Source: an uncultured Nitrososphaerota archaeon (GTDB taxonomy: Archaea > Thermoproteota > EX4484-205 > JAAOZP01). Taken from it: DNA of 64,000 bases. A program made the position numbers and the translations under genes. Shown in pieces: positions 12,799 through 26,355 of the stretch. Under the pieces are notes generated by a model. That model worked only from the letters and a program-made list of their open reading frames with translations. It did not search any database and was not told the origin of the DNA. The DNA lies in contig CAZWPT010000043.1 in the NCBI GenBank assembly GCA_964635675.1, positions 14,963 to 78,962 on the forward strand, given 5' to 3'. Positions within the stretch are counted from its first letter, which is position 1. Every line of letters begins with the position of its first letter.

Positions 12799-13627
12799 CT
12801 AAAACGGTGCGAATACTCCGATGAACACGAGCCAAGCGAGTAGTGTTTTAGCCACTAGGCTTAGAATAATGTAGACTCTTTCGCCGTATAAGTAGTCTTT
12901 CCATCGTCCAACGCCTTTGTATTGAAGAACCATGTTTAAAGCGAAGATGTTGAAAACAATGAAGCATACGAAGAAAATTGCGTAAACAAATGCAGGCGGA
13001 TTCGTGCCCGTAGAAGTGATTGCTGAAACAAAATACGCGAACATTACAATCCATGGGACTCCCGGAAATACACCCGAGAATAAACGGTGTCCAATTCGTT
13101 TTCTCCGTGCTCTGATTTATCAACTCCATTAGATATCCAAACATGATCATCATTGCATTTAGCACAAAGATCATTACAAGTGACCAGAAATCCCAAACTC
13201 CAACAAAGGTTGCAATGAGCACGATCATTATTGAGCTGGAGAAAGCATATTCATACCAGCGGTAGGGGTTCATTCCTTTTTTCAAATTCTCAACATAGTC
13301 TTTGTTTTTTGGATAAGCGATTAAGAAATGGGCTAATGCTGAAATAAGCGGAAAAGAAGCAACCATCGCGTCCAAGTAACTTGCCGTGAAAAGTATTTGA
13401 GGGTTTGGCAAAACCTTGAAGGGCATCTGGCTAATGTCGAACTTCAAGTAGAACGTGTATACGGGTTGATTCCACTCCAATAGAACACCGAGAGACAACA
13501 TTAAAATGCCAGTTATCAGATGCAAAATGCCTGCTGCTATGTTTATACGTTTCAAGTGGCTAAATGAAATTGGCGATTTAGCAATTATCTCCCGTCTCTC
13601 TTTATAGTTCGTAAATAACCTATTCAA
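12799..13627 (-). pseudogene. heliorhodopsin, frameshifted near 13060
   Basis: 'NPYRWYEYAFSSSIMI' and retinal-lysine motif 'GERVYIILSLVAKTLLAW'; the two halves lie in different frames. Confidence 0.9.
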
Positions 13628-13853
13628 GGAAGGGGTTGATATATTTTTTCCGAATTTCTACAAACTTTAGCGCGCGCTCTAGCTTAAACAGGTTTTTGAG
13701 CCGCCTACTCCTAATAGCAAGCTTTTAGTACCGCTTTATCTATGGCTGGTGGAGCTTGAGCGGTGAGACAGCAGCCTACGGCCTCAGCCGGTGTACTCCG
13801 GCATTGGGGCCTAGGAAGCAGAGCATGGTTGGCATATTCGGGTGGTGTTTCAG

Positions 13854-14669
13854 ATGGTGAAATGCGAGGTTTGCGGCGCGGAACTAATTCTGCCTTTCAC
13901 CTGCTCTTACTGTAAGGGTACTTTCTGCTCCTACCATAGGCTTCCTGAATCACACAATTGCCGAATGCTAAACCTGGTGAAGATGCAAAGACAAACATAC
14001 AGCGAGGCCCCCATTATATATAGTGAGACCCCTCCTCCGCCTAGGCGCAGGCTTAGAATATCGAGGATCACCAGTAGGACTGAGGTTACGCACCTGCTGG
14101 TCGCATGGGTTGTTTTAACGGTATGTTTCTCCATCACATATGTCCTCAACCCTAGTTCAATATTGCCGCTTATTCTTATCATCTACCTGATCGTTGTCGG
14201 AACAGGGTTCGTATCGCACGAGCTGGCGCACAAGTTTACTGCCCAGAGATACGGCTACTGGTCTGAATTCAGACTGTGGCCTATGGGGCTTGCCGTTGCT
14301 TTATTCTCATCCCTGCTTACAGCCGGATCTTTTATCTTCGCCGCCCCGGGCGCTACATACGTGGCGCCACGTATACACGCCTATGAATTGCCCCAGACTT
14401 CTGAAAGAAGGCGGATTGGGCTGATGTCTCTAGCAGGCCCTATGTCTAACGTTGCTTGGGCTATCCTGTTCCTCTTCCTAAGTGGACTAAGCGGTCTGCC
14501 GGGTCTAATAGGTACTGTGGGCTTCCAAGTGAACCTGTGGCTAGCAGCATTCAACATGATTCCGTTAGGAGGTTTAGACGGTAGAAAAATTCTGTCGTGG
14601 AGCATTACCGCTTGGGCTGCTGTGGCTGTTCCACTATGGGCTGCACAGGTTTTTCTAATGTTTTTCTGA
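13854..14669 (+). CDS. AN1-type zinc finger fused to M50 (site-2) metalloprotease
   Basis: CEVC..CSYC...CSYHRLPESHNC; HELAH; 'AFNMIPLGGLDG'. Confidence 0.85.
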   Translation: MVKCEVCGAELILPFTCSYCKGTFCSYHRLPESHNCRMLNLVKMQRQTYSEAPIIYSETPPPPRRRLRISRITSRTEVTHLLVAWVVLTVCFSITYVLNPSSILPLILIIYLIVVGTGFVSHELAHKFTAQRYGYWSEFRLWPMGLAVALFSSLLTAGSFIFAAPGATYVAPRIHAYELPQTSERRRIGLMSLAGPMSNVAWAILFLFLSGLSGLPGLIGTVGFQVNLWLAAFNMIPLGGLDGRKILSWSITAWAAVAVPLWAAQVFLMFF

Positions 14670-14801
14670 GCGATGGTAACGCTTTAGCGCGCTCAGCCAC
14701 ATGTTTTCAAGGCTTACACACGTTTCTTATCTAGGAAAATTGGGAACTTGATGTGTAAGATTTTTAACGCATAATGGTGGAGAAACGGGAGTGGCAGAAA
14801 G

Positions 14802-15748
14802 ATGAGTGGGAGGAAAACCATAAGTAGAAACGTTGTTTTCGCATTCCCCCCGCCGCCGCCTCCGGAGCATAAGACGGGAAGGGGGATTCTCATAGGCTTG
14901 GTTGTTTTCATCGTTTTGGAGAATATTCTCCTCGCTCTCTTTCTGATCAATTATTTCAAGCTCTCATCCTCTTACCAGAAGATGGAGGAGGGTTACCAGT
15001 CGCTTTACACAAGCTTCTCAAATCTCAGCTCGGCCTACATGTTCCTGATGGGGAATTACAGTGTTCTCAGGAGGGAACTCGATGTTGAGGCTGTTTTGAA
15101 GATTGGTAATAGCCTCCAATCGTATTATGATGTATTGAGGCAGATTAAGGGGTTGGACGGTACAAAGGAAAGTGCAAACCCGACCAAGGATCAGGTTATT
15201 TTCGCGGCGAGACTTGCGCAGCACGATCTTGGCAACCCATACTTGCCGGATGTGGAGGCCGAATTTGAAAGGATCACTGGGAGGCGGAGCTATGATATTG
15301 CGAGAAGTAAAATCAACGAGGTGCTTCTAATAATCGACTTGAGCGAGTCTGATCCGCCGGTTGTCAAGATTGGAAGGATACTGAACTTCACACGCAGGTA
15401 TATTCACTACGAGTACGAGGTTAACAATGTTTTCCGGGCTCCTGTTGAAACTCTGGGGTTGAGGTCTGGCGACTGCGATGATTATGCGATTCTTGTGCCT
15501 CGCTTTTCGAGGCGGTTGGAATCAACTCAGCCGTGGGATCGTTCAAGAATGCGACTGGAGCCTACCATTACATGGTGCTCGTCCATCTTGAGGAATTGCC
15601 GGGATACAGGTATTGGAGCTTCCCAGACCTGGCGAGATTCGGACTGACCAAGGGGAGATGGATAATAATCGAGCCTCAACTACCACTGGACCGCCAGGGA
15701 GATGAGCAGATTGGAAGGTGGACCCTATTAGCGGCGGCAGAGGTCTGA
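14802..15748 (+). pseudogene. membrane-anchored transglutaminase-like cysteine protease, 1-nt frameshift near 15497
   Basis: TM + coiled coil + 'PVETL..SGDCDDYAIL'; the H/E catalytic segment ('YHYMVLV', 'WIIIEPQ') is in the next frame. Confidence 0.75.
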
Positions 15749-15799
15749 CTCATCCCTGAAGAGAGTGGCACAGCTGACGCTTGCAGCATGTTAGACGTT

Positions 15800-15863
15800 A
15801 AAAAGTACGCTAAGGAATGAGGTGGACTGGCCGGAGGAGATAAGGCGTTTCCTAGAGGAGAAG
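15800..15863 (+). pseudogene. RHH/VapB-type antitoxin fragment
   Basis: 'EVDWPEEIRRFLEEK' resembles archaeal 'VNWSEEIRKFIEEK'; cut at AGCGCGCG. Confidence 0.55.
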
Positions 15864-15871
15864 CGCGCGTT

Positions 15872-15991
15872 TTGCGTTCAGATGCTAATATCTTATTTTT
15901 CTCTATGACTGAGAAAATTTATAAAAAATGTCTCAACAACTATTACATTATGAAGGAAGCGAGGGGAGAAGCTACATCGAAAATTGGTACA
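15872..15991 (+). repeat. diverged copy of the promoter and first ~14 codons of the AAA ATPase (4710-4835)
   Basis: near-identical 'tttctctatgactgagaaaattt...tgtctcaacaactattacattatgaa..agaagctacatcgaa..tggtaca'; both ends abut GCGCGC. Confidence 0.9.
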
Positions 15992-15997
15992 GCGCGC

Positions 15998-16290
15998 AGG
16001 GATCAATTGGTTTTCGATAATTTTCGAAAGACATGGCTCCGGGTGAGGCTAAGGGCCTGGTCGCAACTTTAACCAGGGTTTTCCTAATGGACGGCTTCAA
16101 TGTGATAGGCTGGAGAGATTTGAATCATCCGGCTGTACTCGATTTAGCTGTTGAAAACAATATTGCATTTCTACGATGCCTGCTACATCCTGCGAGCGCA
16201 ACCCTTAGGGTACCACTTTTAACTGAAGACGAGTAATTGAAACAGATCGCAGCTAAGTATACAAAAGTCTTGTCCTGGAAAGAATTCTGA
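15998..16290 (+). pseudogene. PIN/VapC toxin C-terminal fragment
   Basis: 'LDLAVENNIAF(fs)YDACYI...PLLTEDE*LKQIA'; begins at GCGCGC 15992-15997. Confidence 0.65.
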
Positions 16291-16372
16291 ACCGTATTAT
16301 GCCTTATAATTCTATTTCTTCATCCAGCGTTAAGAAAGCTTTTATTAGTGTGTTGGGAAAGGAAAACGCGTA

Positions 16373-17899
16373 ATGAAGCGTTTGGGGCTTGGCGTAGTGA
16401 ACATGCTGTTAACAGCATGTTCCGTTTTCCTTCTCCTCCTTATTCTATCTCCAGTAGAGATGTCTTTCGGAGAGCCTGATGGCGCTTCCACCCGTATCTA
16501 TGTGGATGTGCACGCGCTTCCGGCAGTCACATACGGCGATACTGTTCAGCTGACTGCCTACCTGTACGATTCGAAAAACAATCCTCTTCCACACCAGACA
16601 GTCAGGTTTCTCGTTAACGGAAGCCTGATGGGGACTGCGGTAACAGACTCCTTTGGAAGAGCCGTCTACACTATAGCCTCGATCCTTGACGCCGGAACTT
16701 ATCTTGTTCAAGCAGTCTTCCAGACTACTGAGAATTACAGCGGCTCCGTAGCCCAACCCACTGTTCTACTGGTTCAAAGGATGAAAACTATTGTCGACTT
16801 CACGTATACGTATGGGATGAAAACGGGTGCTGAGACGCTGATATGTGCTGTTCTAAGGGACGGTAGGCAGAACGCTCTGCCGGGCCAGACAATAAGCTTC
16901 TACCTTGACGATGCTCTAATAGGGACCTCTGTCACAGACCAGACTGGAACAGCCTGCATACGATACACTCCGAGAACCGGGGGCACGTATATGCTTAAAG
17001 CAGTGTTTTCAGGCTCTAGAAACTACGAGTGTTCTTCAAGCACCAGCGCTGTTGTAATAACCGGCTTCTCTTTAACGGTATTGACTCCATTCGCCAACGC
17101 GCCAATCGTCAGGATTAACCAGGACCAGTTTACGACCGACGAGTATGGCAGGGTGAAGACTTATGTTAACCCTGGAACATACAGCGTAACGGTTCAAGAA
17201 TACTATAACATGTCTCCCAGCGTTAGAGCACAGTTCATCCAGTGGACTGATGGAACTCAAAAGACATCCATGTCTGTTAATGTTTCATCAGATTTAACGC
17301 TTTCAGCCAAGTATAAGCAGCAATACTTGGTCAGCATTGTTTTTCGAGACGCAGCCGGCATGCGAAACATAGTCCCCGACTCCGTAACGCTAGTAGGCCC
17401 AGACGGTGTTTCCAGAACGCTAACCGGCTATTCGTCGCTGTGGCTGGATGAAGGACGGTGGATAGTGTCCAGCATCCTTTGGCGGGGCGTTTCAGTCGAA
17501 CTGGACGCTTACAGGACTTTCTGGGTTGACTCTCCCACGGAACATGCTTTTCGCTGCGCAATATATGATGTAAGCATAACCGTACAAGACATCCTGGGTT
17601 TTAAGACACCCTGGGCGCGCGTAAGGATGATGCTTCCTAACGGTGATGTTCTCGAGCAGAGCACGGATAGGACTGGTAAGACTATTTTCACCTCCGTCCC
17701 TAGGGGAAGATTCTACGTTTCAGTCACCAGCATGAATATCACAACTTCGTTGGATGGCGACGCCTCGATCAATAATGATTTAACAGTGGTTATTCTAGTG
17801 TCAAACGCCACGCTGATCGTAAGTATTCTGATCATCGTAACTCTAATATGCGTTGCCTACCTAAAAATGAGAAGGAGCAGGGGGCGCGCCAAGCCTTAA
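16373..17899 (+). CDS. surface protein with Ig-like / carboxypeptidase-regulatory-like repeats and C-terminal TM anchor
   Basis: signal peptide, repeated 'LP.QT..F..G...GT.VTD..G.A' units, C-terminal TM and basic tail. Confidence 0.75.
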   Translation: MKRLGLGVVNMLLTACSVFLLLLILSPVEMSFGEPDGASTRIYVDVHALPAVTYGDTVQLTAYLYDSKNNPLPHQTVRFLVNGSLMGTAVTDSFGRAVYTIASILDAGTYLVQAVFQTTENYSGSVAQPTVLLVQRMKTIVDFTYTYGMKTGAETLICAVLRDGRQNALPGQTISFYLDDALIGTSVTDQTGTACIRYTPRTGGTYMLKAVFSGSRNYECSSSTSAVVITGFSLTVLTPFANAPIVRINQDQFTTDEYGRVKTYVNPGTYSVTVQEYYNMSPSVRAQFIQWTDGTQKTSMSVNVSSDLTLSAKYKQQYLVSIVFRDAAGMRNIVPDSVTLVGPDGVSRTLTGYSSLWLDEGRWIVSSILWRGVSVELDAYRTFWVDSPTEHAFRCAIYDVSITVQDILGFKTPWARVRMMLPNGDVLEQSTDRTGKTIFTSVPRGRFYVSVTSMNITTSLDGDASINNDLTVVILVSNATLIVSILIIVTLICVAYLKMRRSRGRAKP

Positions 17900-17932
17900 G
17901 AGAATATGCTGCTTAACAGTTTAGATTATCAT

Positions 17933-17986
17933 CCTGTGTCCAAGTCGGGCCTGCCCGCCTGTGTCCAAGCCGGGCCTGCTCGCCTG
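17933..17986. repeat. 25-bp tandem direct repeat (2 copies + 4 nt)
   Basis: CCTGTGTCCAAGyCGGGCCTGCyCG x2. Confidence 0.8.
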
Positions 17987-17988
17987 CT

Positions 17989-18420
17989 TCATTTCTCCTT
18001 CCTAATTATCCTCCAGCCATCGCTTTCCCTCACTAAACCCATTTTCTTTTTAACCATGTTTCTTTTCACCATTACGCTTTCCAGAAAAGACTCGTCGTAG
18101 TGAACAATTATCCCGTCCTCAAGCACATCGTGCAGGAAAAAGTTAGGCTTTTCTAATTCCTCTAAGAACTCTTCTGGGAAATATCCGACGGCCCTCAGAT
18201 TGCCTACCCTGTAAAGCCCGGATAGGCTCCTCCTCTCGAAAATGTTCTCGGGAAGATTCTCCGCTACTATGCACACATCTATGTCGCTCTCCTCAGTGAA
18301 GTCTCCCCTAGCGTACGAGCCGAAAAGCACGACGAGCCTCGGCTTAAGCTTTTCGACTTGACGTAGAAACTCCCTAACCTTCTCGTAGGCGATGTTCTTA
18401 AGTTTCTCCTTCGGCAACAA
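17989..18420 (-). CDS. minimal nucleotidyltransferase (MNT) antitoxin
   Basis: 'LFGSYARGD...SDIDV'. Confidence 0.9.
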   Translation of the reverse strand: MLPKEKLKNIAYEKVREFLRQVEKLKPRLVVLFGSYARGDFTEESDIDVCIVAENLPENIFERRSLSGLYRVGNLRAVGYFPEEFLEELEKPNFFLHDVLEDGIIVHYDESFLESVMVKRNMVKKKMGLVRESDGWRIIRKEK

Positions 18421-18799
18421 TCTTCTTCGCCCCCTCGAAAATGGATTTCGCTAGGCTTATTGCCTGCTCAGCCTGTAGCCTTGTGAAATATCTCTTGGCG
18501 GGCCCGCTCGCAAAAGCATTGGCATACCTTGTCGGAATATAATACTGGTCCAGTATCTTAGCGTTTTCCTGAAAGGCTTTGAACCGCTCGTCTATCTTAA
18601 TCAGCTCTTCGACCAGGTCGACAAGTGAGTGCGTCCTCCTTTCGACGCCGTAGTGATTTAAAGCCGCCTTGAGAGAAAGCTCAGCCGCCTGTTGCGCGTT
18701 AAAGCATACCTTTGACCATCTTCCGGTTTTAAACAGGTCTAAAGCAGACCCTAGGAAGTCCTCAGCATCCTCGATTAAATCTCTCGCCCTAGTCACCAC
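18398..18799 (-). CDS. HEPN domain protein
   Basis: 'AQQAAELSLKA', 'THSL', 'YIPTRY'; GTG start inferred. Confidence 0.9.
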   Translation of the reverse strand: MVTRARDLIEDAEDFLGSALDLFKTGRWSKVCFNAQQAAELSLKAALNHYGVERRTHSLVDLVEELIKIDERFKAFQENAKILDQYYIPTRYANAFASGPAKRYFTRLQAEQAISLAKSIFEGAKKIVAEGET

Positions 18800-18948
18800 G
18801 ATCAGGAATAAGCCTGCTCTTCGATTTATCTGTTTCCTTCCCCCTTCCAAAAATCGGAGTTTCTTTAGACATTGCATTTTCGCGGATGAGGAAAAGCATG
18901 GAAAGATATTCGTGAACACGGGCCTACGGTGTTTTTAGCCTAGATGGT

Positions 18949-19755
18949 TTATTGCAACGCGGCGTGCTGCTCAGAGGTGGCTTTAATCGGCCATATTAAT
19001 AGAGCCGGGTTCGCCTCGTCAAGTATCTTGGTTACGCTCTTCCTCTCAAGGTCTATTCTGCTTCCTACGGGTCTGCAAGCAAGCATGGTGGAGGCGTTGA
19101 GAGAGTAGGGGACAGCTATAGCCCTCATCGGGTCTATTGAGAGCGTGAAGCGGGGCTCATCTAAACGCGTTTCGAGCATCCTGGAGAGGTGGAGGGTGTA
19201 GCGAAACCTAGCGGCCCTGTGGCTCTCAACCGGGTCATGCTCGTCGAAGAAAGCCCAGTCTCCAGCCTGAAAGTCGAGCACATGGATGTGGAAGCCCCTC
19301 GCGCCGCTGAAAACTATAATTATGTTGCTATAGTTCTCCTCGACGAGTTCGCAGATCCTGACTGTGTACTTCTTAACGATCTCTAGGCACTCGTAGCAGA
19401 CCCATGTCCTGGGGTGCTCGTGGCTATCTATCCCTCTAAACAGGGAGTTGTCAACGTCGACAACATACTCTCCGCCAATAGGGTAGGCATGTCTTGCTTC
19501 GCTCTTCAGCCCAACCCTCTCAGGGAAAAGGTAGTCTAGGACGCTCATGTAGACGCGCGTCGGAGCATACTCGGCGCAGAGCCTCCGCAAAGCCACCAGG
19601 TTTACCCTGTTTCTCAGCGTGTTCAGCTTTACAAGTCTTCCTTCACGAATAGCTATTCTAATGTGCTTCCGGCTCAGCTCCCACGGGAACAATGGGGGCG
19701 GGCTCAGGTTCTCATAGTATTGTTTAACCAGGTCCCGGCGCGTCTGCAATCCCAC
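18949..19755 (-). CDS. stand-alone PriS-like archaeo-eukaryotic primase (AEP) paralog
   Basis: motif I EYVVDVD, Zn knuckle HEH..CYEC, motif II SGARGFH, motif III LDEP..SIDPMR...PYSLN; 268 aa; no priL adjacent. Confidence 0.8.
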   Translation of the reverse strand: MGLQTRRDLVKQYYENLSPPPLFPWELSRKHIRIAIREGRLVKLNTLRNRVNLVALRRLCAEYAPTRVYMSVLDYLFPERVGLKSEARHAYPIGGEYVVDVDNSLFRGIDSHEHPRTWVCYECLEIVKKYTVRICELVEENYSNIIIVFSGARGFHIHVLDFQAGDWAFFDEHDPVESHRAARFRYTLHLSRMLETRLDEPRFTLSIDPMRAIAVPYSLNASTMLACRPVGSRIDLERKSVTKILDEANPALLIWPIKATSEQHAALQ

Positions 19756-20680
19756 CCTCCCCCAGGATGAAAGGCGCCTCCCCGTAGGGAAGGTGTGGAG
19801 CGTCGAAAAGGTATGCGACCCGGGTGTTCTCCTTCCCCTTCCTCAGGAATAGACGGTAGGTGCTTGCATGCGCGACGACGTTTCCCCCGGCCGGCTTGTT
19901 CGGGTCTCCGAAGAACTGGCCAGGATTAGTGACAACCTGGTTAGTAACAACGACGGCTAGGTTAAGGGCCTCGGCAAGCTTAAGCAGCTTGTGGACGTGA
20001 CTGTTAAGCCTCTGCTGCCTTAGGGCAAGGGCTTCCCTGCCCAGGTACTCGCCTCTAAACTGGCTGGTCAGGGAGTCTACTATGATCAGTCTTATTGGAC
20101 GCTGGCTGCATATCTCCCAGGCCTTGTCTACTAAGAGAACCTGGTGGTCGGAATTGTAGACCCTGGCGTAAATAATGTTCTTAAGACCCTTCTCGGCTTC
20201 CAGCCTGTGCTTCTTGGCTATCTGCACAATCCTCTCAGGCCTGAAGGTCCCCTCAGTATCTATGAATAACGCGCCGGCCTCCAACCCGCCCTTATCCTTG
20301 GGAAGCTGGACGGTAACGCACAGGGTGTGGCAGAGCTGGGTCTTCCCGGTTCCGAATTCTCCGACCAGCTCCGTCATAGCCTGGGTTTCAACTCCACCGC
20401 CAAGCAGGGAGTCTAGGCTCTTGCTTCCAGTCGTGATCTTCTGGGCGAGCTGCCTTCTCTTCAAAACCTCGTCGGCGGTGACAAGGCTTATCTTCACGAG
20501 CTCCCTAGCGGCCTGAGATATTTTCAGCGCGGTATCGTAGCCTATCCCAGTTGCCTCGGAGAGCTCGAAGGCTGTTGCAACAGCAAGAGACTCAACGGTC
20601 ACATACCCTGCTTCCCTGAGCTTCCTGGCTGTTGCAGGCCCAACACCCTCAATATCCTCAAGCGAACACTCGCTTAACAT
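19724..20680 (-). CDS. radA: DNA repair and recombination protein RadA
   Basis: N-terminal HhH domain 'IEGVGPATARKL', GEFGTGKT, IDTEGTFRPER, 'GGNVVAHAST'. Confidence 0.92.
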   Translation of the reverse strand: MLSECSLEDIEGVGPATARKLREAGYVTVESLAVATAFELSEATGIGYDTALKISQAARELVKISLVTADEVLKRRQLAQKITTGSKSLDSLLGGGVETQAMTELVGEFGTGKTQLCHTLCVTVQLPKDKGGLEAGALFIDTEGTFRPERIVQIAKKHRLEAEKGLKNIIYARVYNSDHQVLLVDKAWEICSQRPIRLIIVDSLTSQFRGEYLGREALALRQQRLNSHVHKLLKLAEALNLAVVVTNQVVTNPGQFFGDPNKPAGGNVVAHASTYRLFLRKGKENTRVAYLFDAPHLPYGEAPFILGEGGIADAPGPG

Positions 20681-20765
20681 TCCTGCGAAAAACCCTGTAA
20701 ACCCTTCTTTTAAAGATGGGGGGAGGCAAACGCTTGAGGGAGAGGGTTGAGTGAAAGTGATTAAA

Positions 20766-20951
20766 GCGCGCGCAGAAGATGCTAAAAATTAGAGCAAAAA
20801 TCGTAGTACCTGCTGCAAATCTCGCCTCGAGCCCAAATAACAACACTAGGGCTGGTACTATTATCGTGCCTCCAGCTAACCCCACAATGGACAAGATAGA
20901 AGGCGAAGCTGCAGCGAGCATAGCAAGCAGTATTGCGATGCTGATCTCCAT
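20766..20951 (-). pseudogene. TSUP/TauE-SafE family transporter N-terminal fragment
   Basis: 'SIVGLAGGTIIVPAL..FGL....AAGT'; truncated exactly at GCGCGCGC 20766-20773. Confidence 0.75.
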
Positions 20952-21189
20952 GCTCTTTGCGCTACAACCGACATAGTCTTATTAAAAGTTTTATTTCAAA
21001 ACGACATGCTTTTAAGAATATCTGGTAATGTAGTTGTGTGTGGCACGCGCGCTTATGTTGTCAACGCGCGATTAACAATTCTGATATCTGGTGGCATTTA
21101 TAACTAATAAATGTCATAAAAATTTATTTTATATTTTCAGGTTCCCATTTACGCCGTTCCGGTCTGCTGTGTCTCAGCTGAGGTTGGGG

Positions 21190-21597
21190 CTAAGTTTCTC
21201 CGGACTCGCTTATGGGTTTGGTCTCAGCCTTCTCCTGAACAGCCTTCGATGCCTTATATTCCTTCCAAGCCTTTATCGCCTCCGCAAAGCTCTTCCCAGA
21301 CCTTATCTGGTCTCTAACGAAGATATTCATCTCAGTTAGTTTGCGTGGTTTCCTGACTTGTCTTGGCGCTGCTGCTTTCATAGTTTTCATAGACGCGATA
21401 AGCTGCTTCTGCATCTCGATCATCTGCTTCTGCGCATCGATCATCTGTCCCATGTTCTTAGTGGTTGATTTGAGTTCGCTGCGGATCTCCTTAAGATAGC
21501 CCGACATCTGTGTCAGACTTCTCTCCAGTCGCTCGACCTCTCTCTTTAATGCGGACTCGGTTATTATCTTAACCGCCTTTTTCGCCAATTCTATCAC
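21190..21597 (-). CDS. coiled-coil protein with C-terminal HMG-box/YABBY-like basic helical domain
   Basis: heptad region followed by 'PRKLTEMNIFVRDQI..GKSFAEAIKAWKEYK'. Confidence 0.5.
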   Translation of the reverse strand: MIELAKKAVKIITESALKREVERLERSLTQMSGYLKEIRSELKSTTKNMGQMIDAQKQMIEMQKQLIASMKTMKAAAPRQVRKPRKLTEMNIFVRDQIRSGKSFAEAIKAWKEYKASKAVQEKAETKPISESGET

Positions 21598-21779
21598 GTT
21601 AAGTTGGGCAGGCTTATTATATAGCTTTTTGTGTTCGCTATTAACATTATTTTATAAATATTGAATACTTAAGCTCGATATTAAACAACTTTACGGTTAC
21701 AGAGGTTTTTCGATTCTCAATAAGGGTGGGTATTGCCAACTTTTTTAAGCCTGCGGCCCCTATACTAGTAAGTCGTTTT

Positions 21780-22763
21780 TCACCTGTGCCCGAAAACAGG
21801 CTTAGGCCTATATGGTTCTTCCAGATGTCTGATCTCGTCCTCCGAGAGCCTAACTTCCAAAGCCTCAACGGCTTCCTCAACGTGTTCAGGCCTCGTTGTT
21901 CCTATTATCGGGGATGTAACTCCCTTGTGATACAACCAGGCTAGAGCTATCTGAGCTGGCTTCAACCCTTTTTCATGCGCCATCTCCACAACTCTTCCCA
22001 CTATCTCAGCGTTTTCAGGCGGCTCTATGTACGTCTTGTAGTCAGGAGTGTTGGGCCTCAGCCTGTCGATATCGGACTCGGTTACGACCAGCCTACTCTC
22101 CTTCAAGTACTTTCCAGAGAGAACTCCCGCTGCAGTTGGGCTCCACGGTATCAAACCTATTCCCTCGCTCTTGCACAGGGGGATCATTTCCCTCTCCTCC
22201 TCTCTATACAGGAGGTTGTATACGTTCTGCATGCTTATGAACCTCTCATACCCGTGTTTATCGCTGACATGCAGCGATTTCGCGAACTGCCATGCCCACA
22301 TGCTTGATGCCCCTATGTACCTCACCCTGCCCTGCCTAACCAAATCCGTAAGCGTCGACAGGGTTTCCTCGATCGGCGTCTCGTAGTCCCACCTGTGTAT
22401 CTGGTAGAGGTCAATGTAGTCCGTGCCCAGCCTTCTCATCGACTCTCCAGCCTGATGCATGATGTGTTTTCTCGAGAGGCCTCTTTGGTTCGGCTTTTCC
22501 CCCATGGCTCCAAAAACCTTAGTTGCTATGACAACGTCTTCCCTAACGTCCTTCAAGACCTCCCCCAGTATCTCTTCGGACCTCCCGCGCGAGTAAACGT
22601 TAGCTGTGTCGAAGAAGTTTACGCCTAGGTCTAAAGCCTTGTTGATTACTTTCCTAGCGTCCTCTATCTCAACCATCCACCCCCTAGCGTTTCCAAAAGA
22701 CATACAGCCTAAACATACCCTTGAGACTTTCAACCCCGAGGATCCAAGCCTAACATATTCCAT
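21780..22763 (-). CDS. aldo/keto reductase
   Basis: 'LGSSGLKVS..CLGCM', 'FDTANVY', 'IDLYQIH'. Confidence 0.95.
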   Translation of the reverse strand: MEYVRLGSSGLKVSRVCLGCMSFGNARGWMVEIEDARKVINKALDLGVNFFDTANVYSRGRSEEILGEVLKDVREDVVIATKVFGAMGEKPNQRGLSRKHIMHQAGESMRRLGTDYIDLYQIHRWDYETPIEETLSTLTDLVRQGRVRYIGASSMWAWQFAKSLHVSDKHGYERFISMQNVYNLLYREEEREMIPLCKSEGIGLIPWSPTAAGVLSGKYLKESRLVVTESDIDRLRPNTPDYKTYIEPPENAEIVGRVVEMAHEKGLKPAQIALAWLYHKGVTSPIIGTTRPEHVEEAVEALEVRLSEDEIRHLEEPYRPKPVFGHR

Positions 22764-22849
22764 TTTAGCTCACCGGAAAAAAGCGGTAGCTGTCTTAAGC
22801 TTTTCCCGAAACAAGCGCGGCTAAGGCTTATTATAAACGCTGGGGAACA

Positions 22850-23163
22850 CCTGTGTAGACTACTTCATCCAATCCTCTGAAGTGTTCCTCTCTAGCAATT
22901 ATTTTAGCCTTCAGGATTCTTCCAGTGGCCAGCATGATTCCGTTTGTTAGAATAGGCTTTTTAAGCCCCCTGCCTTCGCGTTCTCAGAAAGCTCTCAGTA
23001 GGCTCCCGCCGCCAAGTTCAACTCCGTATCAATCTCCTTTACGGTACTGTTCATCTAAATGAAGCCTTTCAATAACCTCGTCGTAGCTTTTCAAGCCCAT
23101 ACGTTTCTTTAATGCTTCTAACGATCTTAGGTTGCAGCGCTTAACCTGTATGGTGCGCGTCAT
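22850..23163 (-). pseudogene. decayed, internally deleted paralog of the VapBC pair at 42401-42999
   Basis: reverse strand gives 'MTRTIQVKR.NLRSLEALKKRMGLKSYDEVIERL' followed by '..TVKEID...EHFRGLDEVVY'. Confidence 0.85.
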
Positions 23164-23330
23164 ACTACCATAAATTATAAGTTTTTTCGCTGGCACTGGT
23201 AATGAGCAGACTGTTTACGAGGGTGGAAAAGCTTACGCCCAAACTCGTGAAAAAGTGTGCTGGCGCGTGTGCTTAACTATGAGGACGCGTGCTGGCTGCT
23301 TATTGCACGCTATTGTTCTAATGTTTAAAT

Positions 23331-23347
23331 AGTAGTACTGTACTACT
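23331..23347. promoter_or_regulatory. operator palindrome of AbrB-PIN operon
   Basis: AGTAGTAC-t-GTACTACT between TTTAAAT box and ATG. Confidence 0.6.
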
Positions 23348-23353
23348 TTAATC

Positions 23354-23638
23354 ATGCAGCTTGTTTCGGTAACTAGAAAAGGACAGGTGACAATACCTGA
23401 AGAGGTTAGGAGAAAGGTTGGAATACGGTTAGGTACTAAACTGCTTGTCGACAGTATAGGGAAGGAGTATGTTTTGATGAAGAAGGTTGAAATGGCTCGG
23501 TCTATGGACGAGTTGCAGAGGATTGGAAGGAAACTTGCGAAGCAACAGGGGTTAACCCCCGGCGAGATCCGGAAAGAGATAGAGAAGATCAGGGCGGAAA
23601 TATGGAAGAAGAAATATGCCAGACGTTATGGTGGATAG
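23354..23638 (+). CDS. AbrB/MazE/SpoVT family antitoxin
   Basis: 'VTRKGQVTIPEEVRRKVGI'. Confidence 0.9.
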   Translation: MQLVSVTRKGQVTIPEEVRRKVGIRLGTKLLVDSIGKEYVLMKKVEMARSMDELQRIGRKLAKQQGLTPGEIRKEIEKIRAEIWKKKYARRYGG

Positions 23639-24035
23639 CAACGTTATTTACTCGGGTCTCGTTTTTAAAGGCAAGCCGGCCCGAGTGTTGAAAGCAGTTT
23701 TAGACGGAAAAATGCGGTTGATTATCCCCGAAGACCAGCTTGAAGAATTATACGTTTTATTCAGAAGAAAATCACCGAGTTCCCTATATTTGTTTGAAGC
23801 ATACCTTTCGCTACAGCATGTAAAAATAGTTTCAGCGGAGAAATATCTGAGGAAGATTAAAACCGCTTTAAAATTAACTAGGGATAAGAAGGATGCGCCA
23901 TACATAGCGTGTGCACTCCTGATTAAACCCAAGTATCTTGTCACTGGCGATAAGGATTTCCAAACCGAAACCATAAAGCGGAGACTAAACATTCTCACGC
24001 CCGGGGAGTTTTTAACAATCATTGAAAGAGGGTAG
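23616..24035 (+). CDS. PIN domain toxin (PIN_3 type)
   Basis: 'VDSNV', 'RDKKDAPYIACA', 'LVTGDKDF'. Confidence 0.9.
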   Translation: MPDVMVDSNVIYSGLVFKGKPARVLKAVLDGKMRLIIPEDQLEELYVLFRRKSPSSLYLFEAYLSLQHVKIVSAEKYLRKIKTALKLTRDKKDAPYIACALLIKPKYLVTGDKDFQTETIKRRLNILTPGEFLTIIERG

Positions 24036-24194
24036 GTTAGCGCGCGCTTTGAAGAAATAGAAGTATTTACACCTTAAAACACTAGTAAACTAACTTACGG
24101 GATGGCGATAGCGCGCGCTACGCTAAGGAATACTTTGAGCATTAGATACTTTTCATAGAAAGGTTTAATTATCATCGGTAGCGGCAACATACGC

Positions 24195-25433
24195 GTGGAG
24201 AAAACAAATCAGGGTTTTCACGGAGACCCGGGGAAACCCGGTTTTAGAAACGTTTACGCGATGGGGCTTGTAAGCTTCTTTACTGATGTTTCAACGGAAA
24301 TGGTCACGGGCTACTTGCCTGTCTTTATAGTTCGGGATTTAGGTGGGACGAAGACAATTCTTGGACTGATCGAGGGAGCCGGAGAGCTTGCTAACAATTT
24401 TTTTAGAATGGTAAGTGGTTTTCTCTCAGACAGGCTTGGAAAGAGAAAGCCTTTAGTATTCGCGGGCTATGCTTTTTCAACGGTTTCAAAGCCTCTTTTC
24501 GCGGTTTCAGCAACACCAGTGGACGCGCTTTCAGTCAGAGTTATGGATAGAACAGGCAAGGGGATAAGAACTTCTCCGCGTGACGCTCTTCTCAGCCAAT
24601 CCGTAGACGAGAAGACAACGGGGAAGGCTTTTGGACTTCACCGAACCCTTGACCAGCTGGGCGCTATTCTTGGACCTCTGCTCGCAACTATTCTTTTACC
24701 TTTAATCGGGCCAAGGCTTCTTTTCATAGCCTCTTTCATACCCGGCGTAATTGCCCTGCTTATTCTATGGTTTTTCGTAGTGGATGTGAAAACTGCTCCT
24801 AGAAGGTCGCAGCTTCTTAAAGGAGCGTCTAGAGTCATGAACAGCGACTTTCTCCTCCTCCTAGCAATACTAGCCGTATTCGGGGTCGGATGCTACGATT
24901 TTTCATTCATACTTGTTCGCTCCGCTGAACTGGGGTTTACTCCTGATCTAGTGCCTCTGGTCTACATGGCGATCAACCTGTTTCATACTGCCGTGGGGTA
25001 TCCTGCCGGGGTTCTTTCCGACAGGATTGGGAGAGAGCCTCTTCTCTCGACTTCTTTTCTGCTTTTCTCATTGACTTCTTTAGTCTTCGCCTATTCCAGC
25101 GGGCTTTATGCAATTGTTTTGCTTATTGTTTTCTACGGCCTTTATTTCGGAATATATGAAACAGTGTCGAGGGCACTAGTCCCAAAGTATGCTCCTTCAG
25201 AACTCAGAGGAACAGCCTATGGGCTATTCTATATCGTAGTGGGTTTGGCAAATTTAGCAGGTATGTCGCTAGTAGGGTTTATTTGGGATAACGCTGGTAG
25301 AACTCAAGCCTTTACCTACAGCATGCTCACTGGAATTATCGCAACGATTTTAGCTTGTTTCCTCGTCATCAGGTCAAGAAGAAACTTGGCAAAGAAAACC
25401 TTGCTCGCTAGGCCTGGAGAGAAGACTAGTTAA
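24195..25433 (+). CDS. MFS transporter
   Basis: 'GFLSDRLGKRK', 'DRTGKGIRTSPRDAL'; 12 TM pattern. Confidence 0.9.
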   Translation: MEKTNQGFHGDPGKPGFRNVYAMGLVSFFTDVSTEMVTGYLPVFIVRDLGGTKTILGLIEGAGELANNFFRMVSGFLSDRLGKRKPLVFAGYAFSTVSKPLFAVSATPVDALSVRVMDRTGKGIRTSPRDALLSQSVDEKTTGKAFGLHRTLDQLGAILGPLLATILLPLIGPRLLFIASFIPGVIALLILWFFVVDVKTAPRRSQLLKGASRVMNSDFLLLLAILAVFGVGCYDFSFILVRSAELGFTPDLVPLVYMAINLFHTAVGYPAGVLSDRIGREPLLSTSFLLFSLTSLVFAYSSGLYAIVLLIVFYGLYFGIYETVSRALVPKYAPSELRGTAYGLFYIVVGLANLAGMSLVGFIWDNAGRTQAFTYSMLTGIIATILACFLVIRSRRNLAKKTLLARPGEKTS

Positions 25434-25672
25434 AATCGTTTGCAATCTTGTAGCGCGCGCTATGATGCTCGAAAAAATAGAATTAAACAAATAACTTAAG
25501 ACTAGGAAGTGTACTTCTCGGGTCGGTTTAGGTAGAGGGGCTGGGTAGAAAGCTATTAGATGAAGCAAGGGTTTTCGCCTCTTTCTTGGAAAAGGAAGAG
25601 CGCGTCCATTGGCTGTATCTCAAGTTGGAGAAAGGTTTAAGTATTCCAACTAAGGTATAACTTTTGGAAACC

Positions 25673-25945
25673 ATGGTTGAACTCAGGGTGAAAGTTGGAG
25701 AAAAAGGGCAGATACTCATCCCGAAAGTGTTTAGAGACAGGTATGGGATAGTGGAGGGAGACAAGGTTTCGATTGAACCCACTTCCGAAGGCATCTTGAT
25801 AAGGGGAAAACCCTCTCCAGAGGAAATAATGAAAAGGCTTGAGGAGCATGTTGAAAAGATTAGAAGGATGGGGGTTTCCGGCCCGAAGCTGGGAGACCTA
25901 AGTAGGGTCTATTTGGAAATGGAGTTCGAGGAGAATACTAGTTGA
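25673..25945 (+). CDS. AbrB family antitoxin
   Basis: 'VKVGEKGQILIPKVFR'. Confidence 0.9.
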   Translation: MVELRVKVGEKGQILIPKVFRDRYGIVEGDKVSIEPTSEGILIRGKPSPEEIMKRLEEHVEKIRRMGVSGPKLGDLSRVYLEMEFEENTS

Positions 25946-26355
25946 AAGCCTTTCTAGATTCTTGCTTCCTCATATACTTGAACGCTATGGTGGATGATGA
26001 AAGAAGGCTAGTAGAAGAGCTGTTCAGAAGACTTCTTGAGGAACAGCTGTTTACGAACATGCTTGTGGTAGATGAGGTGCTTTACGTATCGAGAAAGTAC
26101 CGAGTGTCTTATGAGACAACTTTAGATTTCTTGAAAAACATGGTGCTGCCCTACGCTGAAGTCCTGCCCGTTGAAGAGGAGGATTTTAAGCCTGCTGAAA
26201 AATACTTGTTAAAGTACGGTTTGAAACCCTCTGACGCTATACACTTGGCAACGATGGAGAAAGCCGGAGTAAGAAATATAGTTTCTGAAGACAGGGAGCT
26301 CGACAAGGTTAAGGAGATTAAAAGAATCTGGGTTACTTCCAATGTTGAAAAATAG
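25942..26355 (+). CDS. vapC: VapC family PIN toxin
   Basis: 'FLDS', 'PSDAIHLAT', 'VSED'. Confidence 0.9.
   Translation: MKAFLDSCFLIYLNAMVDDERRLVEELFRRLLEEQLFTNMLVVDEVLYVSRKYRVSYETTLDFLKNMVLPYAEVLPVEEEDFKPAEKYLLKYGLKPSDAIHLATMEKAGVRNIVSEDRELDKVKEIKRIWVTSNVEK

Follow-up and report, generated by a model that had tools for sequence, protein, structure and literature searches.

The locus described here combines two things that are known singly, paralogy of the recombinase RadA and stand-alone archaeo-eukaryotic primases (AEPs), in an overlapping operon. It lies on the reverse strand of a 64,000-nucleotide stretch of contig CAZWPT010000043.1 from an uncultured Nitrososphaerota archaeon (the window, within which positions are numbered from the first letter), and consists of radA2, which encodes a second full-length RadA, followed by the gene for a small primase-polymerase-like protein, here called mini-PriS. 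A full-text search of the literature, which did not cover supplements, found no description of a radA-AEP operon. To judge from sequence, the locus may be a mobile accessory cassette of recombinase and primase-polymerase serving recombination-dependent DNA synthesis, and this is the reading that we tentatively prefer.

Among described proteins, the PriS subunits of Pyrococcus (1g71 and 9f26) and Sulfolobus (1zt2 and 5of3) resemble mini-PriS in their AEP fold, in the DxD motif and third Asp, in motif II (sGxxGfH) and in a zinc-knuckle-like H..CxxC. Mini-PriS differs from them in its length of 268 aa against about 345–376 aa, in lacking the inserted subdomain, in having no PriL partner gene, and in being accessory, multi-copy and often degraded. 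It also has Ala, Ser or Thr, and Asn, in place of the Arg and His of the 'HRH' signature described in passages of PMC5862659. LigD-Pol/Prim-PolC, the archaeal non-homologous end-joining polymerase 5dmu, AgaPP (associated with prokaryotic Argonaute) and PolpTN2 are likewise small AEPs of one subunit that do not belong to the replisome and whose context is accessory or mobile. According to PMC11724360, stand-alone AEPs of repair systems and mobile genetic elements carry out gap filling, terminal transfer and end joining by way of microhomology (MMEJ), which is the kind of chemistry proposed for mini-PriS. Unlike these enzymes, mini-PriS has a RadA recombinase as its partner, and its structural match to them is at E 1e-5, against 1e-9 for PriS. 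The annotated neighbours of the pair include no ligase, helicase or PriCT domain; Ku was not searched for genome-wide.

RadA2 resembles known RadA proteins in passing the equivalog thresholds and in having helix-hairpin-helix (HhH), Walker A, Walker B and L1/L2-loop regions, and we take it to be a second full-length RadA rather than a truncated paralogue of the RadB or aRadC type. It differs in not being a vertical copy, in evolving faster than RadA1, the genome's other RadA, and in having Leu for the Phe of the polymerisation motif. A parallel in concept is offered by phage T4, in which a UvsX-type recombinase works with phage replication and priming proteins in recombination-dependent replication. 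The likeness is that a recombinase-made D-loop would start synthesis by a dedicated, element-encoded enzyme, and RadA2 matches a UvsX-like PHROG family; the pair is unlike the T4 system in that no viral context was found for it, that it comprises two genes only and that it has an AEP as the enzyme of synthesis.

The two genes and their products

The two open reading frames (ORFs) and their overlap are as follows:

19724..20680, reverse strand: radA2, second full-length RadA recombinase (318 aa), xenologous to the vertically inherited radA1
18949..19755, reverse strand: mini-PriS, 268-aa stand-alone AEP primase-polymerase-like protein, from profiles, an AlphaFold2 model and Foldseek
19724..19755, reverse strand: 32-nt stretch in which the radA2 3' end and the AEP 5' end overlap, from sequence and from tblastn in relatives

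An initial annotation, made from the letters of the window, had placed both genes and a 32-nt overlap at these positions, and both are found there in the ORF list of the window. The overlap is 32 nt if the AEP gene starts at the GTG at 19755, and 26 nt if it starts at the TTG at 19749. GGAGG is seen directly 5' of these starts, and from overlap and GGAGG together the two genes are probably translationally coupled. In what follows G000 denotes the source genome, C-numbers contigs (of G000 unless another genome is named), G005, G006 and so on its relatives, and L-numbers loci. The end of radA2 runs over the start of the AEP gene, by tblastn, in L031–L036, L016 and L145–L150. Two elements lie upstream:

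20707..20714, reverse strand: TATA-like TTTAAAAG, about 27–34 nt 5' of the radA2 ATG, a presumed promoter
20728..20759, reverse strand: 32-nt conserved box 5' of radA2; the same box is dispersed in subclade genomes

The box (20759–20728) and then TTTAAAAG (20714–20707) precede every radA2 examined, a TTTAAAA-like element standing at the matching offset in other radA2 upstream regions. Extra copies of the box were found at G000:C4:61518–61555 and in loci L119–L134, in genomes G005, G006, G007 and G010, several to a genome. Some have 5' radA2 remnants attached (G000:C4, G010:C37, G005:C6, G005:C21 and G006:C2), and others stand alone (G007:C5, G007:C20, G005:C110, G005:C23 and G010:C10). The dispersed box with its TATA-like element may serve as a common promoter or regulatory module; alternatively, it may form one end of a mobile unit.

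The genome has core genes of both kinds elsewhere. Family searches covered the 2.16-Mb, 92.8%-complete assembly, and located a canonical PriS (67.8 bits) adjoining the genome's only PriL match (PF04104, 73.2 bits) on C24, where priL (342 aa) and priS (376 aa) form an overlapping operon. Another full RadA, encoded by radA1, is carried on C39 (282.5 bits). The separate canonical genes for which the initial annotation had proposed a search are thus present on C24 and C39, so that the window does not hold the only radA and priS of the genome, and the radA2-AEP pair is therefore accessory. Its further statement that no PriL lies near the AEP gene also holds, the sole PriL match being the one beside canonical PriS; nor was any PriL seen in the flanks of the six paired radA2-AEP genome loci.

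RadA2 scores 455.7 bits against NF003301 (cut-off 259) and 441.6 bits against TIGR02236 (cut-off 361.15). With both equivalog cut-offs passed, and with PF08423 (302 bits) preceded by an N-terminal HhH domain (PF14520, 50.4 bits, residues 7–60), the description of the gene as a full-length radA is borne out. In the alignment Walker A (GEFGTGKT), Walker B (LIIVDS) and the L1/L2-loop regions are all kept. The polymerisation motif in the linker of RadA is named FxxA; it reads LVTA in all six radA2 sequences, and the same column holds Phe in each of the 15 other aligned RadAs. Identity to the product of the genome's own radA1 is 51%. RadA2 has the look of a catalytically competent recombinase, of foreign ancestry by the tree described below.

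Mini-PriS passes the Pfam profile PF01896 marginally (28.0 bits, cut-off 26.8) and falls far under the three NCBIfam PriS equivalogs (39.3, 36.4 and 27.8 bits; cut-offs 143.5, 326 and 577). With the canonical PriS of G000 it shares 19% identity. A word-index search gave 85 relatives, and an exhaustive HMMER search of 1.84 billion representatives gave 184 at E ≤0.001 and 19 at E ≤1e-30, many of them short pieces; the named sources are Brockarchaeota, Bathyarchaeota/Bathyarchaeia or Thermoproteota. In an alignment of 23 family members D100, D102, S150, G154, F155, H156, H158, D208 and N220 are invariant, and H112, C120, C123, G151 and R211 nearly so. All the AEP motifs that had been claimed for the protein are accordingly kept, namely D100-x-D102, H112/H114...C120-x-x-C123, S150-G-x-x-G-F-H156-x-H158 and D208, and in its divergent motif 'IAVP' stands where PriS has 'LRLP' in the alignment to Pyrococcus PriS.

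The AlphaFold2 model of the protein (pLDDT 78.1, pTM 0.80) has as its top Foldseek matches the PriS structures 1g71, 9f28, 9f26, 5of3 and 1zt2 (E 2.5e-9 to 6e-8). Chains of LigD-Pol/Prim-PolC match more weakly, at rank 40 or below (E 8e-6 to 7e-5), and in the PDB the family profile matches PriS chains only (9f26 at E 2.5e-11). In solved PriS structures the region between motifs II and III is a separate subdomain. This region, PriS residues ~157–273 (about 115 residues), corresponds to some 34 profile positions (158 to 192) in the AEP, and the model has 268 aa against 344–346 aa for the PriS chains. By this comparison mini-PriS is a predicted PriS catalytic core without the inserted helical subdomain. 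At motif IV, the R-L-P-x-x-x-H of PriS aligns with A214-V-P-x-x-x-N220, position 214 being A, S or T throughout the family. The archaeal 'HRH' signature includes the basic residue of motif IV and the His that follows, and that basic residue is essential for primer synthesis in human PriS and in PolpTN2, as set out in passages of PMC5862659. R211, which lies three residues before position 214, might act as a substitute basic residue.

Distribution, descent and decay of the pair

Among 41 genomes (G000 and 40 relatives) the AEP is matched at E ≤1e-30 in eight. Seven of them belong to the genus, G000 and six of its 16 fellow members, and the eighth, at 35% identity, to a different family; the weak matches left over are canonical PriS. 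Five relatives have a full-length AEP (G005, G006, G007, G012 and G016), and in all five radA2 is directly upstream and overlapping. Genes of radA2 type (85–92% identity) were found only in the six of 17 genus genomes with full-length AEP; genes of radA1 type, 50–53% identical to radA2, were found in 15 of the 17. When 185,579 species genomes were scanned, 28 AEP loci were found, and at genome loci where AEP identity is at least 65%, radA2 overlaps the AEP gene in six of six (one low-coverage record splits radA2 over two frames). A metagenome scan, in which 80 of 186 loci were kept, gave six loci with a whole AEP at 72–96% identity, every one with an overlapping radA2 (91–97%); no radA was seen in the flank of one 76%-identical AEP fragment. 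The pair is thereby recorded in six of the 17 genus genomes, in two further genome records and on six metagenome contigs, always in the order radA then AEP and always overlapping. At the Bathyarchaeia fragment locus L050, a radA lies about 3 kb off on the opposite strand. On the question of conservation that the initial annotation had raised, the pairing is kept wherever the full-length AEP of this clade is found, but it reaches no further than a single clade of genus rank.

When 67 RadA sequences are placed in a maximum-likelihood tree, built by quick search under LG+G4 and with SH-aLRT supports, radA1 falls in one clade (100) nested inside the clade of its order (98). The radA2 sequences form a separate clade (100) on a long stem, within another starred group of the tree, and their sister (90) is a trio that includes a Bathyarchaeota RadA. 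Beyond the radA2 clade, the closest RadAs in the databases, at about 60% identity, belong to Nezhaarchaeota, Bathyarchaeia, Verstraetearchaeota and Thermoprotei. On this topology radA2 is a xenologue, unlike the vertically inherited radA1. A different extra RadA, 54% identical to RadA2 and placed in the sister group of the radA2 clade, is present in the genus member G015. It was considered as a further case of coupling to an AEP and was rejected, its neighbours (L067, G015:C6:13375–17304) being a NurA-domain gene and a Top6A/Spo11 Toprim fragment.

Ratios of non-synonymous to synonymous divergence (dN/dS), which as Nei-Gojobori estimates are rough and have dS near saturation for some pairs, are 0.00–0.04 for radA1, 0.04–0.09 for radA2 and 0.11–0.29 for the AEP gene. 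The low values for the last two indicate that both are maintained by purifying selection. For radA2 dN is 0.05–0.12 as against ≤0.01 for radA1, and in ten genome pairs with both measured radA2 dS is about 1.2 to 3 times radA1 dS; between G000 and G005 the two are 1.76 and 0.59. Between genomes whose RadA1 proteins are at least 99% identical, the AEP is 59–81% identical by tblastn. The history of radA2 and the AEP gene, as read from these values, is not simply that of the host genomes.

Degraded copies are scattered, on C5, C63 and C4 of G000 and in G005, G006, G007, G008, G010 and G016. The two degraded AEP copies of G000 lie at the end of C5 (frameshifted, aa 82–265) and at the start of C63 (aa 82–166), the latter followed by a gene for a BrxL-like Lon/ATPase (PF13337, 345.6 bits); C4 has a remnant of the radA2 promoter region and first codons. 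The C63 and C5 copies (G000:C63:1–1408, L002, and G000:C5:15323–15869, L003) are both at contig ends and are identical over their first 141 nt, and this common start looks like a branch point of the assembly graph. At L046, in G007, a radA fragment (aa 109–156) is fused to an AEP fragment (aa 110–263), and the pair was therefore duplicated as a unit.

Neighbourhood and junction palindrome

Three further features border the pair:

17989..18919, reverse strand: HEPN-MNT toxin-antitoxin-like pair, directly 3' of the AEP gene; accompanies the pair in G007 only
20658..20951, reverse strand: truncated TauE/TSUP permease remnant, a 97-aa ORF (PF01925, 28 bits)
20765..20774, no strand: TGCGCGCGCT palindrome, a junction marker exactly between the TauE remnant and the upstream box

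The accessory context that had been described, with HEPN-MNT downstream and a TSUP remnant upstream, is seen with Pfam. HEPN (PF05168, 95 bits) and MNT (PF01909, 49 bits) directly follow the AEP gene, and the match of the remnant to PF01925 is below the cut-off of 32.6 bits, residues 10–72 aligning with profile positions 3–63 of 237. TGCGCGCGCT (20774–20765) is 5 nt 5' of the box, at the end of the TauE-like sequence. Between species radA2 and the AEP gene alone are common, and the flanks differ: HEPN-MNT adjoins the pair in the closest relative, G007 (L031), and not in L032–L036, and the block common to G000 and G007 is window 17816–20760, homology ending at 20760. Pfam annotation of 24 ORFs neighbouring the paired loci gave PIN, RHH, AbiEii and HEPN together with metabolic genes, and no integrase among the 24. 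In G007 a Y-family (DinB/Dpo4-type) polymerase gene (L031:1652–2794) is directly upstream of radA2-AEP on the same strand, the three making up what is, by its layout, a putative gene cluster of damage-tolerance type. A gene for a TFIIB (TFB) homologue precedes the polymerase gene on the other strand.

The palindrome AGCGCGCGCT has 70 copies in the genome, where 0.8 (order-3 Markov) or 8.6 (order-5) would be expected, an excess of about 8- to 80-fold. Its consensus widens to (T)AGCGCGCGCT(A), 10–12 bp, with flanks otherwise unrelated. Sixty of the 70 copies are outside ORFs, though ORFs cover 88.5% of the genome. The copies show no preference for gene orientation, and no recurrent gene stands beside them, only two 2-member clusters emerging from 108 flanking ORFs. 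The ten copies in the window start at:

3053, 13669, 24039, 24110, 25452, 42350, 44044, 44170, 45998, 55839

Counts of AGCGCGCGCT in the genus, where a reversed-motif control gave 0–3 in every genome, are:

G016, 118; G007, 88; G000, 70; G008, 33; G006, 32; G005, 18; G009, 16
G012 (70% complete), 6; G010, 3; G013, 3; seven others, 0

The enriched subclade is that with RadA1 proteins at least 99% identical. Some Bathyarchaeia genomes are also enriched (up to 131 copies), and most are not. A HIP1-like origin, through a C5-methyltransferase and Vsr repair, was considered and gained no support: of the 17 genus genomes two have PF00145, neither carrying the motif, and none of the motif-rich ones has it; in the genus this search did not extend to N4/N6 methylases or Vsr. 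Among the literature matches listed for the AGCGCGCGCT string, none is on archaeal genomics.

The palindrome marks junctions. G007 joins its match to window 13682–15823 to its match to window 21119–21832 via exactly AGCGCGCGCT (G007:C5:28690–28699); absent at that site are 5.3 kb (window 15824–21118) with a protein with Ig-like domain (Big), MNT-HEPN, the AEP, radA2 and the TauE remnant. At 15824–21118 the reference has only degenerate GC runs, 40–70 nt inside both boundaries. A VapBC block in G007 is bracketed by copies of AGCGCGCGCT, and another copy begins directly after one. Comparison with contigs of other hot-spring runs, at ≥90% likeness, gave these joints between distant window positions:

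18953 to 22425, run X3: AGCGCGCGC between, depth 9.65
18974 to 25673, run X3: CGCGCGCGCT between, depth 10.5
23314 to 25981, run X4: AGCGCGCGCT between, depth 75, 81 letters on the shorter side

The AEP gene's 3' end is where both X3 joints begin; several of the joints fall inside genes of the reference. Contigs of X1, X3 and X4 diverge at 20760, those of X3 and X4 having a GC-unit insertion at 20765. No half-palindromes were seen at the reference positions of variant joints. Joints with less than 95% likeness may stem from related organisms, and are thus to be read as alternative arrangements in relatives or strains, not as proven deletions. In Bathyarchaeia loci (GC)n palindromes are dense and abut the edges of AEP fragments in four (L049, L051, L054 and L057), where about one would be expected by chance on a rough estimate. 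At L046 AGCGCGCGCT is 7 nt from the truncated radA copy; no palindrome was found at the break of four radA2 remnants (G006:C11, G010:C37, G005:C21 and G006:C2).

Other observations concern the surrounding window. Two MazE/AbrB-PIN (VapBC-like) pairs (23354–24035 and 25664–26355, forward strand) and the HEPN-MNT pair (17989–18919, reverse strand) fall within 9 kb, and the VapBC blocks are variably present and relocated in relatives, where they are palindrome-flanked. An ORF of the heliorhodopsin family is found at 12848–13627 (reverse strand; PF18761, 181.9 bits) in this hot-spring archaeon. At 14802–15748 (forward strand) an ORF of 281 aa has its continuation in another frame, in a 71-aa ORF that overlaps it; runs X1 (the likely source) and X4 have an inserted C after 15496, pointing to a frameshift in the gene or to an error of assembly.

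Readings of the pair and their significance

The initial annotation had proposed the pair as a plausible author of the GC palindromes. In that case the RadA2-AEP pair, or the AEP alone, would create AGCGCGCGCT, for instance by template-independent or hairpin-primed GC synthesis that seals breaks, and we consider this very unlikely. It would agree with the strong over-representation (70 copies against 0.8 or 8.6), with the restriction of enrichment within the genus to the subclade that has the pair or its remnants, with the palindrome found between kilobase-distant window positions in contigs of other runs, two of those joints leaving from the AEP 3' end, and with the motif 7 nt from truncated radA at L046 and (GC)n at AEP-fragment edges in four Bathyarchaeia loci. 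Five of five Bathyarchaeia genomes reached via near-full-length AEP loci have 106, 40, 74, 11 and 53 copies, with controls of 5, 1, 1, 4 and 8. An even sample of 151 Bathyarchaeia genomes was then scored, taking an AEP match at E ≤1e-15, and counting as motif-rich a genome with at least 10 copies and a control of at most 2. Eight genomes are AEP-positive and 15 are motif-rich, three of these being AEP-positive (incompleteness of the metagenome-assembled genomes could hide some AEPs); the association has p = 0.03 by Fisher's exact test, without correction for relatedness. There is, however, no AEP match in 12 of the 15 motif-rich genomes; G126, G162 and G191 have 94, 65 and 63 motifs and no AEP match, while two genomes in which the AEP match is long and uninterrupted by stops, G137 and G179, have 0 and 1. 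Within the genus an intact pair is missing from G008, which has 33 motifs but only fragments of the AEP, and from G009, which at 89% completeness has 16 motifs and no pair found; the breaks of four other radA2 remnants show no palindrome, and AGCGCGCGCT also bounds unrelated cassettes such as those of VapBC and MFS. Moreover, the same association is expected if the AEP is merely frequent cargo of palindrome-bounded cassettes. Motif and pair in one subclade amount to a single origin, one evolutionary event and full confounding, so that the co-occurrence proposed as a check comes down, in the genus, to one subclade, and the survey of Bathyarchaeia tells against authorship.

The simplest reading of the association looks to be that the AEP gene, here the radA2-AEP pair, is a frequent cargo of palindrome-bounded cassettes, to whose mobility the AEP may contribute. 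Little credence can be given to the more ambitious idea that mini-PriS, here with RadA2, would be the engine of an undescribed process of rearrangement or cassette mobility in hot-spring Thermoproteota, leaving (T)AGCGCGCGCT(A) at every junction, so that the hundred-odd palindromes per genome would be scars of AEP-mediated sealing or insertion.

For the pair itself we tentatively prefer the mobile cassette for recombination-dependent synthesis. RadA2 would coat single-stranded DNA and invade a homologous duplex, and the co-produced AEP would prime on, or extend from, the resulting D-loop or gap. The outcome would be a self-contained function in repair, restart or integration, independent of PriSL and RadA1. 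The unit itself behaves like a mobile cassette, lodged in a variable island with many toxin-antitoxin genes. Individual steps of this kind are described in earlier work: D-loops made by archaeal RadA are extended by DNA polymerases in vitro (PMC7407445), archaeal PriSL carries out terminal transfer and MMEJ-type repair (PMC12019639), and a PrimPol derived from a mobile genetic element carries out translesion synthesis, terminal transfer and MMEJ (PMC11724360). The separate core genes, the conserved order and overlap, the strict co-occurrence, the xenology, the purifying selection, the invariant catalytic residues and the PriS-like fold all speak for it, as do the Y-family polymerase gene upstream in G007 and the duplication as a unit at L046.

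Several observations weigh on the other side. No radA was found within the flanks of any of 73 metagenome AEP loci at ≤54% identity, nor in the flanks, of up to 4 kb, of nine near-full-length Bathyarchaeia AEP loci (42–47% identity), and since distant homologues of the AEP are solitary the protein does not need a RadA. The pair is dispensable, being lost or degraded in the close relatives G008, G009 and G010, and the excess of radA2 dS over radA1 dS is more in keeping with lateral exchange than with a stable function in the host. Its surroundings are accessory or defence-like (HEPN-MNT, VapBC, AbiEii and BrxL). As regards the proteins, the Phe of the RadA2 polymerisation motif is changed to Leu, and replacement of the motif-IV basic residue and His, weighed against the passages of PMC5862659 cited above, makes primase activity of the AEP uncertain. 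Physical or functional cooperation of RadA2 and the AEP, their substrates, and the benefit to host or cassette are all things that we infer. The initial annotation had gone further, to a dedicated recombinase-primase repair module. What stands of this is that the pair is apart from the core machinery, with a conserved overlap, purifying selection and, in G007, a Y-family neighbour; but the pair came in by horizontal acquisition, is patchily spread and occurs in several copies, some of them degraded, and a dedicated host repair module is thus only one of several readings.

One of these, which we rate as possible but rather unlikely, is that the pair belongs to a mobile genetic element, be it virus, plasmid or integrative element, as its module for replication or recombination. 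RadA2 and the AEP would then initiate recombination-dependent replication of that element, and the chromosomal copies would be integrated remnants and not serve the host in repair. Its patchy spread (six of 17 genus genomes), the xenologous radA2 and the scattered degraded copies would be expected of such a module, as would the many short pieces among AEP family members in the representative library and the variation of flanks by species; an integrase fragment lies near one Bathyarchaeia locus, small unknown ORFs occur in runs at several, and among phage recombinase families RadA2 matches UvsX-like ones (phrog_97, 81.5 bits). Yet among 2.9 million viral contigs there was no AEP relative, the AEP has no PHROG match, and hallmarks of an element, such as integrase, capsid or helicase, were not seen over about 1–4 kb around the six radA2-AEP genome loci or over about 14 kb on each side in the window, while both genes are under purifying selection in a chromosomal context. 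The setting, among HEPN-MNT, two VapBC pairs and other toxin-antitoxin or defence genes, brings to mind instead a defence or conflict module, one that would, for example, sense or destroy invading DNA through aberrant recombination or synthesis and act with its toxin-antitoxin neighbours. PIN, AbiEii and HEPN at the loci of relatives, the C63 copy abutting a BrxL-like ATPase, the fast evolution of the AEP (59–81% identity where RadA1 is at least 99% identical) and the AEPs reported in PMC11724360 and PMC5862659 to be tied to Argonaute and CRISPR systems all point that way. PADLOC, however, gave no match for the AEP and a weak partial one for RadA2 (mad8, 27.4 bits), RadA2 retains all the features of a working recombinase, and islands rich in toxin-antitoxin genes collect unrelated accessory genes, so that such a neighbourhood is weak evidence for defence; we regard this explanation as improbable. 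Hardly any weight attaches to an adjacency without functional meaning, in which unrelated accessory genes were captured side by side and then inherited through linkage. The AEP family is solitary outside this clade, as that would predict, but overlap and order have been kept though the AEPs diverge to 59–81% identity and the flanks differ, radA2 and the AEP gene are both under purifying selection, and in no genus genome was a complete radA2 found without the AEP, nor a complete AEP gene without radA2.

A separate puzzle, and the stranger phenomenon, is that an identical GC palindrome stands at the junctions of cassettes and deletions in two classes of archaea, which merits a study of its own; the cassette of the pair provides concrete, datable examples for studying it. 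Archaeal recombination and primase-mediated repair have usually been studied with a single housekeeping RadA and PriSL. The present locus is a compact natural unit, moving between genomes, in which a complete additional recombinase is paired with an AEP that is minimal and has a single subunit. If RadA2 and the AEP cooperate, they would constitute a two-protein system of recombination-dependent synthesis that could easily be reconstituted in vitro, and one that would shed light on the recruitment of AEPs to recombination intermediates and on what a PriS core of the smallest functional size can do when PriL is absent.

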